Part shown: positions 1-29,245 of the stretch, in pieces
How the letters are laid out: the number at the start of each line of letters is the position of its first letter
Numbering within the stretch: position 1 is the first letter of the stretch
Assembly (NCBI GenBank): GCA_029855935.1
Contig: JAGSHN010000014.1
Location: forward strand, 1-29,245
Source: Candidatus Thorarchaeota archaeon
GTDB taxonomy: Archaea > Asgardarchaeota > Thorarchaeia > Thorarchaeales > Thorarchaeaceae
Length of the DNA stretch: 29,245 bases
Reading direction: 5' to 3'
Notes under the pieces: generated by a model
The model's input: only the letters and a program-made list of their open reading frames with translations
What the model was told of the DNA's origin: nothing
The model's database searches: none
Made by a program: the position numbers and the translations under genes

Positions 1-2
1 TA

Positions 3-635
3 GAATTCACTGGGGCAATCGATGGAACTCTTACACTACTTGTGTCAACTGATATCTTGGGCGACCTTCAAGTACATTCACTGAACATAGCTACCTCGGC
101 TGAACAGGAACACTCAGAGCAAGAGCTAGAGGATGCTGCGAGAGAGATGAGAACACAATATGACGAGTTCCTGTCAGAATTCGCCTTTCCTGTAGTATTC
201 AGCACTACTCTGATATTGGGATGGACAGCAATTGAAGCTGCGGCATCTCCCTTGGCGATTGGCACAAACTTGGGAGCCCTACTGGTGATGCTTGCTGCTT
301 GGACTGCATTGTTTGTATCTTTTTTTGCGTATCTCTTCTATACTGTAGATGCGGGAATGACCAATCCCTTTGCTGCAGCCGCATCACTGCTCGAACTCCT
401 GATAGGAATGCTTTGCGACAGCAAATATGTACGCTTGGCTCTTGGCAGGGCATGGTGCATATTTGATATATGGAGAACACTACGATCTGTCGACCTGGGG
501 GTGCCTTCTGGCTCTCGCAAAATAGGCCTCTGGTCTGCTACAATCATACTAGCAAAGGTAACGGTCTTGGTCACTTGTATCTATTACATCTCCAAGTTCT
601 TGGGGATGGGATTTGAGGGTCAACCGATGGGGTAG
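3..635 (+). CDS. 5'-partial variable C-terminal tip (variant 1) of the cassette protein family; multi-pass hydrophobic domain
   Basis: Frame is open from base 3 (EFTGAIDGTLTLLVSTDILGDLQV...). LLVSTDILG...HSEQELEDA aligns by eye with HVKSDLLG...LSDSEYEAL (2849-4150) and LWVDLLG...MSDSEMEAL (28187-29245), followed by 3-4 hydrophobic helices. Confidence 0.7.
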   Translation, partial: EFTGAIDGTLTLLVSTDILGDLQVHSLNIATSAEQEHSEQELEDAAREMRTQYDEFLSEFAFPVVFSTTLILGWTAIEAAASPLAIGTNLGALLVMLAAWTALFVSFFAYLFYTVDAGMTNPFAAAASLLELLIGMLCDSKYVRLALGRAWCIFDIWRTLRSVDLGVPSGSRKIGLWSATIILAKVTVLVTCIYYISKFLGMGFEGQPMG

Positions 636-642
636 AAATACT

Positions 643-1296
643 ATGACCGAACGGCAACTCCTCTTTCTCAGGATCTTCGGGATATTCGGAATGGTGTTCC
701 TGATAATCCTGCTTGTTCGGATAGCGGATTTCTGTTTCGAACACAATCGTGGGCCTGTTCTTCTGCGACGTGTTGGACGATTTTTCTGTGGGACCTTCGA
801 GCGAGCAATGGCAACCTACGGCACATCCCACGTTGTGTTTCAAGTCTTCATTGCATTCTTGCTCTTGTGGGGCTATCACTACGACAGAGACACTGGAGTC
901 ATAACGATTGAAGAACTTCTGATAGTCATTCTATTCTTCGCACCTTTTCTTGTCATCTTCCTATACATGGCGTACAGAGACCTGTCAAAGCGGTTCGGGA
1001 GAAGAGAGATGACAGAGAGAGAGCGGGCTTGGGAACAGGCCTGGGAACAACTCCCAATAGACACAATAGTAGGAGCAATAGAGACGGCTTTTCGTCAGTC
1101 TACACCTGACAGGACCACATTCAAAGAAGCGGTATGCGCTCTTCTCACGAAGTACGAGAAGATGCATCACGGAAGAACGCGAGATATCTATGCCCGCGCA
1201 TTTGAACAACTGCTAGCACGAAACGACGAGTGTTCGGAGGCATTCAGGGAAGTCTACGAGGAGTGGTATGCTAGAGATTTGCAAGGTGGGGACTAG
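643..1296 (+). CDS. Small membrane partner protein (candidate immunity), family A: 3 TM segments plus helical cytoplasmic C-terminal domain
   Basis: ATG 7 nt after the stop of the tip gene; hydrophobic N-half; C-terminal motifs RREMTERER and LLARNDECSEAFRE resemble those of ORF 6065, and the latter also that of ORF 2124. Confidence 0.75.
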   Translation: MTERQLLFLRIFGIFGMVFLIILLVRIADFCFEHNRGPVLLRRVGRFFCGTFERAMATYGTSHVVFQVFIAFLLLWGYHYDRDTGVITIEELLIVILFFAPFLVIFLYMAYRDLSKRFGRREMTERERAWEQAWEQLPIDTIVGAIETAFRQSTPDRTTFKEAVCALLTKYEKMHHGRTRDIYARAFEQLLARNDECSEAFREVYEEWYARDLQGGD

Positions 1297-1344
1297 TGTG
1301 TGACATTGCCAGAACGCTATCGTTGTCAACAATGTGGGCACCAG

Positions 1345-1600
1345 TAAGACATAGAATATCGACAGTCCTGATTGATAGGCGGGATAAGACGACGATGCTC
1401 GTTCGTTGAGGCGATGACAAGTGCATGCCACTGGGCAACGTTGGCTCTTGCAGAACCGCTTACGGTGTTCAGGTTCGGATACGTGTCCAGTTCGTTTGAG
1501 AGGATAGTGAGGTCGTTGCGAAGGCCGTTCTGTAGTGTCAACGAAGCGGCCTATCCGAGCACCGACTGGCAGTGGGGGTGCGTATCGCTCCGTGGCCCGG
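1345..1600 (+). pseudogene. Highly decayed relic of the constant segment
   Basis: cagtcctgattgat...gacgacgatgct...ggcgatg resembles the VALYDENMQRVMMILFGD segment and its relic at about 24590-24660; tcaacg...ctatcc...cgtatcgctcc resembles the FNVYFYP...SYRSSG segment. Weak, by-eye alignment. Confidence 0.3.
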
Positions 1601-1704
1601 TGCGAAATTACCTTGCGAGTCAGCTGGCACCTGAACTCCTCCAGAGAGGCATTGAATCTCTGAAGACTCATCCTGCTGTGAGGTATGCTCGGACTGCGTA
1701 GGTC

Positions 1705-27082: not shown

Positions 27083-27089
27083 TGCTGGT

Positions 27090-27170
27090 CACCACGTTGA
27101 CCGTGTGCGTTCAGATGCTACCTCAACTGTTGAGGTTTTTCATTCTCAATTGGATATTGGCCAATGGTAC
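27090..27170 (-). pseudogene. Weak relic of the 3' end of the constant region
   Basis: tgagaatgaaaaacctcaac...atctgaacgcacacg resembles tgagagtcgacaacatcaac and acctgaacagacacg (MRVxxIN...DLNRH). Confidence 0.4.
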
Positions 27171-27218
27171 ATTCGCTGGTTGCACTTTCTTGCCCGGAGA
27201 CGACCACACGTTCTCTGT

Positions 27219-27638
27219 CTAGTTGTGCCCATCGGCTCTATGTGCGGCGTCCGAACCTGAAGCCGCATCCTGGGTAGTCCCAGAAGGATGTCTGTCGTTG
27301 CTGCTCAAGACAAGGAGCAAGGTGACAAATGCAATGAGCGAGGGTATGAATCCCCATACGAAGAGGAACCATTGGGACAGGAGGAACGATGCTAGGCCGT
27401 TTGCCAATCGACAGACCGTGCTCCATTCTCGAGGATGAACCCGGAAGAGTGTTGTGAGCCTGCCTTTGTCTGCCGAGGCGGAATCGAGTGATATCTGTGC
27501 AGCGAGTCTGATCCGTCGGGCGAACCAGACGAGAATCATTCCAGGGATTCCTAAGTACAAGAAGAGAAGAAAGCCGTCAACCTCCGGGAGAAGACCAGTG
27601 AAGAACCACTCGAGCTGCAAGCTACCACCATCCTGCAA
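27219..27638 (-). CDS. Small membrane partner protein (orphan candidate immunity)
   Basis: 139 aa, three hydrophobic segments, polar tail; same strand as the cassette array; partial decayed duplicate at 26150-26250. Confidence 0.65.
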   Translation of the reverse strand: MQDGGSLQLEWFFTGLLPEVDGFLLFLYLGIPGMILVWFARRIRLAAQISLDSASADKGRLTTLFRVHPREWSTVCRLANGLASFLLSQWFLFVWGFIPSLIAFVTLLLVLSSNDRHPSGTTQDAASGSDAAHRADGHN

Positions 27639-27761
27639 TCAGTCCTTCGAAGATAGAGACCAGAAGAAGATTGTCGGGCCGCCCCACTTGAAGATACCGG
27701 GCATCGCCGAAAGAACGGGGCACAGTTGCCTGTTTCCAGTGCAGACGTGGCCAATTCTTGG

Positions 27762-28187
27762 CTATGTGGGAGAAACTTCTGTTCTGTCAAGGGCCTCACG
27801 TTTCTCTCTTCGATAGTCCAGAAGCTCTCCCAAGGGCAGTAGCATCCACGGAACTGTAGCCACGAGGAGCCCGTCCAACAACTCATAGGGGTACAGAAGC
27901 ACTGTCTGGACGAGGATTGCGATTGCTGGCAAGAACATCATGAGGCCAAGAACAACGTGACCAATCAATCGTTTCTCACAGAAATCGACAAATCGTTGGA
28001 ATGGGTTCGTTGAATCGAAAGAGGATTTCAACCTTGTTCTTGCAACCCAAGCCAAGAGAAGACCAAATATGAAGAATGGGATCGTAAAGAGCACCGTGTA
28101 GAATGCCAAGTAGATTATCTCCGTAGAGAGTGAACCGGTTCCTAGAATGTCGAGGATGTGTTTTGCAGATTGAGTATTCTTCGCCAT
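27762..28187 (-). CDS. Small 3-TM membrane partner protein (candidate immunity for variant 3), family B
   Basis: ATG overlaps the upstream stop (TAATG); three TM segments; PLGELLDYRREKRE tail. Confidence 0.8.
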   Translation of the reverse strand: MAKNTQSAKHILDILGTGSLSTEIIYLAFYTVLFTIPFFIFGLLLAWVARTRLKSSFDSTNPFQRFVDFCEKRLIGHVVLGLMMFLPAIAILVQTVLLYPYELLDGLLVATVPWMLLPLGELLDYRREKREALDRTEVSPT

Positions 28188-29245
28188 TATGTTCTCACTA
28201 CTTCACCCATATCGTAGGCTATGCGCTCAAGAAGATCTGTGAATATCAAAGCAGCAGCCAGTGCCACTATTGGCAGCATCATAAAAAGGCTTAGTGCGAA
28301 AATGGCGTATGAGGCCAATGTGAATTCCTGAGCTATCTGTTCTAGGCCAAAGACCCTGTAGATCAAAGAGGGTAGACGTCCTGCTGCAGCATAAGTACTT
28401 GCAACAACCCCGAAAATGCTTGCCGCAAATCCGACAAGCATATACCCTGCCGCGACCCGATCAATTGCTGACTCGATTACCATATGACTGAATTCAAGAA
28501 TCCACATGTGCCATAGAACAAGAAGTGCTATTGCAGCTGCAGCAAAGCACAGTTGAGCAAAAGTGTTCCCTTTCTCGGCGAGAGGAGCAAGGATTCTGGC
28601 AAGAAGATATGCAGCATTGACGCCAAGCGTCAAGCTCTGTAGGTCTAGGAAGTACGGTGCGAACTTCTCGGACGAACTCTGAACCAACGCCTCCATCTCA
28701 GAGTCACTCATTGACGATTCGTCAATCAGTTGAAAAGCAAAGTCGTCAATTCCCCACATGCCGAGCAGGTCAACCCATAGCGCTATCTGAAAAGCCACTG
28801 TGGGATACGGACTGTAGTCGACAACAAAATGTACTACTGGCCACCAACCAGTCCAAAAGACACTGAGATGGTCAGGTGCATCGTTCTGTGCATTCTCAAG
28901 GAAGCTATCAAGTGCTTTGCTATCGGGTAAACGTGTGCCATCAAACTCCTGAAACTCATCCGGGTCCTGTGCGTTGGGATCGTGTCTGTTCAGGTCTGCG
29001 ACGACGTTGATGTCGTGGACCCTCATCTCGACGAGGGGATACGAATAGGCTCTGTAGCCGAGGATGGCGACGTACTTGATGACTCTTGAGGCAGTCACCA
29101 CGTTCGCCAGCGGATAGGACGATCCCTGTCCATCGATGCTGGCAAAGATGGCGCCCTGCGGACTGCCATCGTACTCGTCCCACCAGAGCCTCCCCGTCTT
29201 CCTGAAGGAGGAGTAGATGTAGCCTGAGGAGCGGTACGACGATGA
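28187..29245 (-). CDS. 5'-partial cassette protein variant 3: constant domain plus divergent multi-TM tip
   Basis: Frame is open to the window edge (SSSYRSSGYIYSSFRKTGRLWWDEYDG...); near-identical to variant 2 up to NAQDPDE, then diverges, keeping only DGT, WTGxWP, DLLGxW and SDSExEAL. Confidence 0.88.
   Translation of the reverse strand, partial: SSSYRSSGYIYSSFRKTGRLWWDEYDGSPQGAIFASIDGQGSSYPLANVVTASRVIKYVAILGYRAYSYPLVEMRVHDINVVADLNRHDPNAQDPDEFQEFDGTRLPDSKALDSFLENAQNDAPDHLSVFWTGWWPVVHFVVDYSPYPTVAFQIALWVDLLGMWGIDDFAFQLIDESSMSDSEMEALVQSSSEKFAPYFLDLQSLTLGVNAAYLLARILAPLAEKGNTFAQLCFAAAAIALLVLWHMWILEFSHMVIESAIDRVAAGYMLVGFAASIFGVVASTYAAAGRLPSLIYRVFGLEQIAQEFTLASYAIFALSLFMMLPIVALAAALIFTDLLERIAYDMGEVVRT
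28955..29245 (-). repeat. Constant-region repeat, right copy (inverted partner 3110-3400); runs off the window edge
   Basis: Direct comparison: 142 bp identical, then colinear high similarity. Confidence 0.97.

Follow-up and report, generated by a model that had tools for sequence, protein, structure and literature searches.

The window analysed here is the entire contig C7 (JAGSHN010000014.1) of a Candidatus Thorarchaeota archaeon, a stretch of 29,245 nucleotides (nt) from a genome of 2.97 Mb that is composed of 32 contigs and is 97% complete, with a contamination estimate of 2.8%. Both flanks of the window very probably carry a polymorphic cassette system, in which a constant segment is followed by a divergent tail with transmembrane (TM) helices and then by a small membrane protein gene, referred to below as the partner. 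Besides three tails, each with a different small membrane gene behind it, the window holds four decayed remnants of the constant domain, together with several tail-less genes that resemble the partners. A polymorphic toxin-immunity system had been proposed in a preliminary description made from the sequence alone; the cassette architecture of that proposal is supported by the present analysis, and a function in toxicity and immunity is put forward here as the likeliest explanation, at somewhat less than even odds. The feature had also been taken to span positions 1 to 29245, which does not hold: the middle of the window (approximately 6.8 to 23 kb) contains unrelated genes for NosD/beta-helix surface proteins, and the feature therefore occupies two flanks rather than the full 29 kb. 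The three tails and their partners are the following.

3..635, plus strand: C-terminal part of a family member that is cut by the contig start; the 4-TM tail of type A follows an acidic linker and the last part of the hinge (DILG).
643..1296, plus strand: partner A, a small membrane protein with a soluble helical C-terminal part, separated from the tail by 7 nt.
2849..3421, plus strand: constant domain, predicted lectin-like beta-sandwich, orphan copy, ending in HDIRVVADL.
3422..3625, plus strand: variable linker and conserved hinge (WTGPWPEVH ... DLLG), modelled as one helix and four strands.
3626..4150, plus strand: acidic juxtamembrane helix and 4-TM tail of type B.
4209..4616, plus strand: partner B, 135 amino acids (aa), three TM helices and an acidic tail.
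27762..28187, minus strand: partner C, 141 aa, two TM helices by hydropathy, overlapping the tail gene in TAATG; no family.
28187..29245, minus strand: family member cut by the contig end; of its constant domain only the second half is present (28934-29245), followed by the hinge (WTGWWPVVH ... DLLG) and a membrane tail of type C.

The three tail open reading frames (ORFs; 3-635 and 2849-4150 on the plus strand, 28187-29245 on the minus strand) are all present as first described, and their tight junctions with the partner genes were reproduced. At the first junction the stop codon occupies 633-635 and the partner begins with the ATG at 643; at the second, the stop codon lies at 4148-4150 and the ATG at 4209, 58 nt further on and with a GGAGG sequence 8 nt before it; at the third, tail gene and partner share the TAATG overlap. 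The unit of constant segment, tip and TM gene had been claimed for all three copies. It is found at 2849 and 28187 and not at 3-635, because the window begins inside the hinge of the first tail and leaves no constant segment before it. Past the junction hardly any similarity is left among the three tails (normalised alignment score 0.08-0.11) or among the three partners (normalised score at most 0.07), which bears out the divergent tips and the different TM gene behind each. A hydropathy scan gives three or four TM helices per tail in the window and two or three per partner. The tail at 3-635 has four TM helices with a basic loop between TM3 and TM4, and is 60% identical to the C-terminus (residues 911-1110) of P0002, a full-length protein of 1113 aa from a sister genome. 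Partner A, which belongs to no Pfam or NCBIfam family, shares 52% identity with the gene that immediately follows P0002 in locus L018.

The constant segment, corresponding to residues 1 to approximately 190 of ORF 2849, is a true repeat: positions 3110-3421 and 28934-29245 are 91% identical at the nucleotide level, and their first 142 nt are identical. In sliding windows, including comparison with a further copy on contig C26, identity between copies is 82-100% up to approximately position 3400 and approximately 45-55% from 3410 onwards. The copy at 2849 lacks a hydrophobic leader, in agreement with the earlier observation that it has no signal peptide. Its homology to the long parent gene described below starts at approximately nt 2828-2831, six codons before the ATG and after an in-frame TGA at 2822-2824, and since the homology begins just past this stop codon and before the ATG, the copy is 5'-truncated and leaderless. 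The lack of a ribosome-binding site, also noted earlier for this copy, is not informative, since transcripts without a 5' leader are common in archaea. The constant domain at 2849..3421 shares 97% identity with residues 739-848 of the parent.

A genome search in which the constant segment served as query identified contig C22 (2.6 kb), which consists of a single open frame of 848 codons running off the contig end, so that an N-terminally extended parent, predicted at the outset, does exist. It is composed of a hydrophobic leader, approximately 450 residues without known family and two copies of the constant domain, of which the first is diverged (34-38% identity) and the second has 97-98% identity; the apparent start Met of ORF 2849 is an internal residue of this second copy. 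The only strong match to a hidden Markov model (HMM) of the head in this genome is C22, which indicates a single parent. The full-length surface protein, present once in each genome examined, has, in order, a signal/anchor helix, a caspase/CHAT-like head, a beta-rich region, two or three lectin-like beta-sandwiches, the junction and the 4-TM tail. In the junction, HDINVVADL is followed by WTGPWP and then by DLLG, motifs that occur in 15-16 of the 18 family members examined, and the residue before the junction Leu is a nearly invariant Asp (VVAD-L, ETD-L, ICD-L).

Structure prediction points to recognisable folds for the head and the constant domain. For the head, the top structural match in Foldseek is the SAVED-CHAT structure 8tl0 (E 3.9e-4, probability 1.0), which also ranks first in an independent search with VIA-align, with Z 12.0 and a root-mean-square deviation (rmsd) of 4.0 over 160 aligned residues, the next chain reaching 9.9. 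Legumain (Z 9.6), caspase-3, gingipain RgpB and Csx29 are further matches, and a putative catalytic pair, His108 (in HGG) and Cys143 (in ACxS), is invariant in 21 sequences. The head is thus predicted from the model to have a caspase/CHAT-like fold of clan CD. It has no Pfam match at E up to 10 to Peptidase_C14, CHAT, C13, C25 or C11, and a profile search of the head against PDB sequences gave nothing relevant. The model of ORF 2849, with a mean predicted local distance difference test (pLDDT) score of 82.5, comprises a beta-sandwich (residues 1-175; pLDDT >90), the hinge and four long helices, the last two of which are joined by a basic loop. In the type-B tail these helices cover residues 288-312, 317-344, 350-376 and 401-430, with the basic loop at 377-400. 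The best match of the constant beta-sandwich is the CBM2 domain of phage J-1 Dit (5ly8; Z 12.9, rmsd 3.2, 163 aligned), followed by galectins (Foldseek E 3.5e-5), calreticulin and PL7/PL18 lyases, and the model suggests a concanavalin-type, lectin-like beta-sandwich.

By sequence, the family stands apart from those described. Pfam, NCBIfam and PDB sequence searches with the parent, the tails and the partners returned no family. In Pfam and NCBIfam, the parent, P0002 and the window ORFs matched none of the Rhs, CDI, LXG or Hint domains, as had been stated; TPS/FHA, VENN, YD repeats, PxxxxDPxGL and the LXG or MafB N-terminal domains were likewise absent from all of these. A match to a housekeeping family, which the preliminary description had named as evidence to the contrary, was not found. 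Its suggestion that the carrier may be new stands insofar as there is no sequence family, and has to be qualified by the predicted folds, which are recognisable as a caspase/CHAT-like head and concanavalin-type lectin domains.

Some other genes of the genome show partial similarity to the parent. G000:C16:56458-57272 (minus strand) is a distant paralogue (32-34% identity) of its beta-rich and first lectin-like regions. The head HMM has weak matches (E 3e-5 to 7e-4) at G000:C16:118172-119347, C16:97131-97913 and C28:106120-107439, all on the minus strand; in these three short genes the leader is followed by a caspase-like domain (SHGSE ... ACxS), to which a hydrophobic multi-TM tail is attached without any intervening domain. 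They suggest a wider superfamily of proteins with a caspase head and a variable membrane tail.

The number of cassettes in the source genome, which had been left to be counted, is one parent with at least five or six tails, in addition to further remnants. Tails with hinges are those of the window (3-635, 2849-4150 and 28187-29245), C26 231-1226 and C25 35681-36331, and C25 additionally holds a tip fragment with its own partner and a constant-domain remnant. The truncation points of the spare copies differ, but all lie inside the beta-sandwich, and no spare copy has a leader; such copies are therefore not working stand-alone proteins. The tails follow a common plan, although their pairwise similarity is close to zero: an acidic stretch some 40 residues long is combined with TM helices, which usually number four, and TM3 is separated from TM4 by a loop of 30-40 residues rich in Lys/Arg. 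This plan, together with the profile matches between tail types given below, makes the tails alleles of one module. Fold searches with residues 286-433 gave only generic helical matches (Z at most 10.6, where approximately 13 is needed for helical bundles), no tail matched Pfam, the colicin pore-forming domain included, and an ESM Atlas feature search with a tail gave no usable match.

Co-variation of tip and partner across genomes, a central expectation of the preliminary description, was observed. The 153 comparisons among 18 pairs yielded only four cases of similar tails (0.36-0.59), and in exactly these cases the partners are the most similar as well (0.19-0.47; Mantel p 2e-4, an inflated value and no true probability because the genomes are related). 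One of the four cases joins the orphan tail L019 6302-7108 to the tail of the full-length gene L023 789-4160. For the type-B tail, only five relatives at E<1e-10 exist among 1.84 billion representatives, all of them orphan-sized; three could be placed on contigs of other genomes or metagenomes, and the genes downstream are homologous to partner B, with scores of 391, 96 and 70 as against at most 50 for non-cognate genes. Similarly, the orphan pair of the sister genome is matched by the pair on C26 both in the tail (66% identity) and in the partner (42%). Complex prediction with alignments gave tail B and partner B a score of 0.50 (runs 0.03, 0.57 and 0.50), the best of three controls scoring 0.00; the partner has a pLDDT of at least 44 and the runs agree in at least 2% of contacts. 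The pass mark is one reached by 58 of 80 solved complexes and by 2 of 110 mismatched pairs, and at scores up to 0.60 only 7 of the 80 solved complexes passed, along with both passing mismatches. The models thus lend weak support to the binding of partner B by tail B.

The system has so far been found in Thorarchaeota only, within one family of the GTDB taxonomy. A total of 38 proteins match the parent, all from Thorarchaeota-type assemblies, and the database relatives carry the labels Candidatus Thorarchaeota or Promethearchaeia. The full-length relatives have 1061-1333 aa, are 48-61% identical where at least 93% of the query is covered, and have no Pfam family except DUF2341 (three members) and PF21174 (one). 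In a phylum scan of 400 species genomes, the parent was present in 38 of the 85 species of the same GTDB family; outside it, 3 of 315 species matched, weakly and in the caspase-like stretch only. Behind each of the full-length genes in six other genomes lies a small gene with two to four TM helices, and from zero to three pairs of a truncated tail and a small TM gene lie beside each full-length gene; the median gap between tail and partner is 22 nt (21 pairs). Full-text literature searches found no description of this family. The sequencing runs listed are all DNA runs of one hydrothermal-vent metagenome study; a single one of them contains the window stretch and is probably the source sample, and no RNA run containing it is listed.

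The assembly is broken where the family is repeated. Both ends of the contig lie within the gene family, and the terminal 51 nt of 28187-29245, at the right end of the window, are an exact 51-mer shared with the ends of contigs C22, which carries the parent, and C9, which has a degenerate head with broken frames upstream; no contig overlaps the left end. There are thus three tails for three heads (C22, the degenerate C9 and the internal copy at 2849), which indicates that the assembler broke at the repeat. Orthology with the full-length P0002 of the sister genome favours the left-end tail, 3-635, as the tail of the parent, judging from sequence similarity; the genes downstream of the P0002 locus map to contig C31 and not to C7, which counts against this joining. 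Elsewhere, C25:39792-39942 and C26:1-151 overlap by 151 identical nt and, when joined, form one cassette array with a partner gene spanning the junction.

The remaining features of the family in the window are partner-like genes and remnants of the constant domain.

1705..2109, plus strand: candidate partner-like small multi-TM gene by hydropathy, with no adjoining tail and no Pfam family.
2124..2759, plus strand: candidate partner-like small TM gene by hydropathy, with a helical C-terminal part, no adjoining tail and no family.
5050..5475, plus strand: candidate partner-like small multi-TM gene by hydropathy, tail-less.
5930..6610, plus strand: orphan partner-like gene with TM helices and a helical C-terminal part; no tail upstream in the window.
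6630..6827, plus strand: decayed constant-domain fragment with one TGA and one TAG inside, 80% identical in nucleotides to 2998-3140.
23255..23602, minus strand: weak constant-domain remnant, matched by tblastn with P0002 (33% over 118 aa, E 5e-5).
24278..24754, minus strand: degenerate constant-domain copy, 37% identical over 195 aa to ORF 2849 and 83% identical over 163 nt, with an HMM match.
24799..25263, minus strand: candidate partner-like small TM gene by hydropathy, no Pfam family.
26238..26363, minus strand: short remnant of the constant-domain end.
27219..27638, minus strand: partner-like small TM gene, of which part of a second copy lies at 26180-26251.

There are tail-less partner-like genes with homology to cognate partners elsewhere, which is reminiscent of orphan immunity genes. 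The gene at 5930..6610 is homologous to the partner of the full-length gene of L020 (26% identity, E 8e-8) and to L026 410-934.

Regarding the other genes in the window, 9541-12660 and 12816-17369 on the plus strand and 18827-23026 on the minus strand encode giant membrane-anchored surface proteins with NosD/right-handed beta-helix repeats, rich in N-x-S/T sites. The second and third of these contain five tandem repeats of about 90 aa (270-nt period) without a Pfam family, followed by a stalk rich in Thr and, at the C-terminus, by a TM anchor. A fourth beta-helix surface gene is apparently split over three overlapping frames of the minus strand (6812-8272, 8245-8739 and 8594-9349), being frameshifted or a pseudogene, and its 3' end is abutted by the decayed constant-domain fragment at 6630-6827. 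Between the beta-helix genes lie two adjoining multi-TM proteins without family (17519-18202 and 18228-18701, both minus strand), the first with Cys-rich cytoplasmic ends. On the right flank, 25401-25859 (minus strand) encodes a minimal nucleotidyltransferase (Polbeta/NTP_transf_2, MNT-type), and MNT-type genes and HEPN partners also adjoin the cassette arrays of L018, L022 and L025; these neighbours suggest that the arrays sit in variable or defence islands. Elsewhere in the genome, long arrays of repeats of approximately 31-40 nt with a spacing of approximately 67-75 nt occur on G000:C18 (~28.7-31.0 kb), C24 (~63.7-66.9 kb), C29 (~124.6-125.6 kb and the contig end) and C20 (start). They are probably CRISPR arrays, in which several contigs end.

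An exported long carrier, a sharp junction followed by a variable C-terminus, a co-varying downstream gene and 5'-truncated orphans are defining properties of polymorphic toxin systems (PMC3482391), and all four are found here; a fifth, a toxic C-terminal module against which the partner protects specifically, would be expected of the Thorarchaeota pairs on this reading. In the explanation that we propose, homologous recombination within the near-identical constant and hinge DNA would bring a spare tail and the partner belonging to it into place behind the head that is expressed, and tail and partner would bind each other within the membrane. The most likely use would be antagonism between related cells, the tail acting as a membrane-active effector that the cognate partner neutralises. 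The caspase-like head may cleave at the invariant Asp of the junction (after the D of VVAD-L or ETD-L), and vesicles, protrusions or membrane fusion are candidate routes by which a membrane-embedded tail could reach another cell. A more specific version, in which tails are transferred by contact- or vesicle-dependent membrane exchange or fusion and tolerated only by cells with the cognate partner, the lectins serving for contact and the head arming or releasing the tail, is speculative and appears unlikely.

Several observations weigh against the antagonistic function. Searches against described families returned no domain for toxicity, immunity or delivery. Nor is a delivery apparatus visible, and nothing is known that would move a Sec-inserted bundle from a single-membrane cell to a neighbour. 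The tails look like ordinary anchors in their predicted topology, with the ectodomain outward, an acidic stretch outside the membrane and the helices inserted in the producer; the positive-inside bias over all loops is small (64 K/R in 753 residues versus 37 in 535), and only the TM3-TM4 loop is clearly basic. Classic polymorphic toxins are assortments of unrelated toxin folds, and the tails have a single 4-TM fold. Their length is 164-190 aa in 17 of the 18 examined (the other has 235 aa and six predicted TM helices), and hhalign joins tail types with probabilities of 99.2% (E 8e-20; 194 columns) and 88%, as against 0.3% for a membrane-protein control. The head lies more than 600 residues upstream of the tail, unlike bacterial releasing peptidases, which directly precede the toxin, and the model of the parent N-terminus is of moderate quality (mean pLDDT 64; head domain 70-87). 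It also follows from the linkage of the two genes that their co-variation could be explained by simple inheritance as a block.

Two other functions would be compatible with much of this evidence. The architecture and the co-variation apply equally to a non-lethal system of self/non-self or kin identity, in which tail and partner would form a membrane lock-and-key that licenses or blocks adhesion, membrane exchange or fusion, with the lectins providing contact. Alleles that all vary one homologous fold are met more typically at recognition loci than in toxin arsenals. The tail, moreover, is an anchor of the normal kind, and the ectodomain is lectin-like; identity in Proteus IdsD/IdsE is set by variable regions beside or inside membrane segments. 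However, what varies here is buried in the membrane, and the ectodomain, which is exposed, is conserved (50-60% identity within the family), so that cells would compare identities only after their membrane contents had mixed, and the hoarding of tail-less partner genes is more simply explained as protection against foreign tails. An identity system is on this balance rather unlikely. The same grade of doubt attaches to an ordinary surface protease or lectin with a fast co-evolving anchor and an assembly or signalling partner, the extra copies being decaying duplicates in a variable surface-protein island. The normal anchor topology of the tail would fit this, as would the many copies in the genome that are fragments with stop codons, the position of the loci among other surface-protein and toxin-antitoxin genes in variable regions, and the lack of direct evidence of toxicity. 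Against it, near-identical constant DNA stands beside unrelated tail DNA within one genome, which needs recombination or gene conversion and not drift. Moreover, intact open-frame pairs of orphan tail and partner persist in many genomes, a tail type that is expressed in one genome recurs as an orphan in another, and there is no obvious reason why the anchor should be the sole hypervariable part of a protein otherwise 50-60% conserved.

Mis-joined repeats or a strain mixture could in principle mimic a multi-copy family that does not exist, an artefact of assembly or binning to which the breaks of both contig ends in the repeat, the 51-mer identical at three contig ends and the contamination estimate would lend themselves. 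The orphan at 2849-4150 and the four remnants are nevertheless internal to the contig, and independent assemblies contain the same arrays within long contigs of up to 237 kb, which makes an artefact extremely improbable.

The genetic logic of the cassettes is that of polymorphic toxins, yet their parts belong to no described family and the variable element lies inside the membrane. Polymorphic toxin and immunity loci are a main means of competition and kin recognition in bacteria. If antagonism between related cells through tail and partner, or recognition by them, is true, the system would be a first handle on the social interactions and membrane exchange of Asgard archaea. If tail transfer in particular is true, it would represent archaeal kin discrimination or competition inside the lipid bilayer, and indirect genomic evidence for regulated membrane exchange in Asgard archaea. 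Even otherwise, the arrays provide a clear example from nature of cassettes being swapped at the interface between membrane proteins, and supply matched and mismatched tail-partner pairs for studies of TM-helix specificity.

Among known systems, the pairing of two membrane-embedded parts has counterparts in bacteria. Pore-forming colicins and the ionophore CdiA-CT(EC93) combine a hydrophobic helical effector with a specific small integral-membrane immunity protein, and have in common with the cassettes a hydrophobic helical part paired with a 2-4-TM protein that would recognise it within the membrane. A colicin, however, is a soluble helical bundle that inserts, whereas the Thorarchaeota tail is a 4-helix anchor with positive-inside topology. 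IdsD of Proteus mirabilis is delivered by a type VI secretion system and has no cassette arrays of this form; IdsD/IdsE share with the present system a strain-specific pairing through variable regions at or within membrane segments, without homology.

The overall organisation resembles that of the CdiA-CT/CdiI, Rhs-CT/RhsI and MafB/MafI systems (PMC3482391), with which it shares a long exported carrier, a sharp junction motif, a variable C-terminus and a linked cognate gene, as well as 5'-truncated spare cassettes with the junction, tail-less partners and the swapping of a type between orphan and expressed state across genomes. In contrast to the diverse soluble toxin folds of those systems, the Thorarchaeota tail is always one membrane-embedded 4-TM fold, and its partners, all integral to the membrane, belong to no known family of immunity proteins; TPS/FHA, YD, LXG, MafB and HINT elements are missing, and there is no apparent secretion machinery. 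Classic polymorphic toxin systems are rare in archaea and mostly borrowed from bacteria, and caspase-like releasing peptidases are established parts of them (PMC3482391). Toxins with such peptidases resemble the Thorarchaeota parent in being exported proteins that combine a caspase fold, with its His/Cys pair, and a variable C-terminal module. The bacterial domain usually lies just upstream of the toxin, whereas the Thorarchaeota one is an N-terminal head whose cleavage activity is putative.

The closest archaeal precedent is VARTIG of the Thermococcales, a large secreted protein of unknown function whose C-terminal region is hypervariable by recombination and which is followed by variable downstream genes (PMC8416519). 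It is likewise archaeal, restricted to a lineage and organised in a way that resembles polymorphic toxin systems; searches by its authors found no VARTIG-like modules in other archaea (PMC8416519). The Thorarchaeota parent and window ORFs have no match to the Ig/E-set domains of Pfam, and the carrier is caspase- and lectin-like instead. The two also differ in what is exchanged: VARTIG varies an extracellular Ig domain, whereas the Thorarchaeota system varies a 4-TM tail with a dedicated membrane partner.

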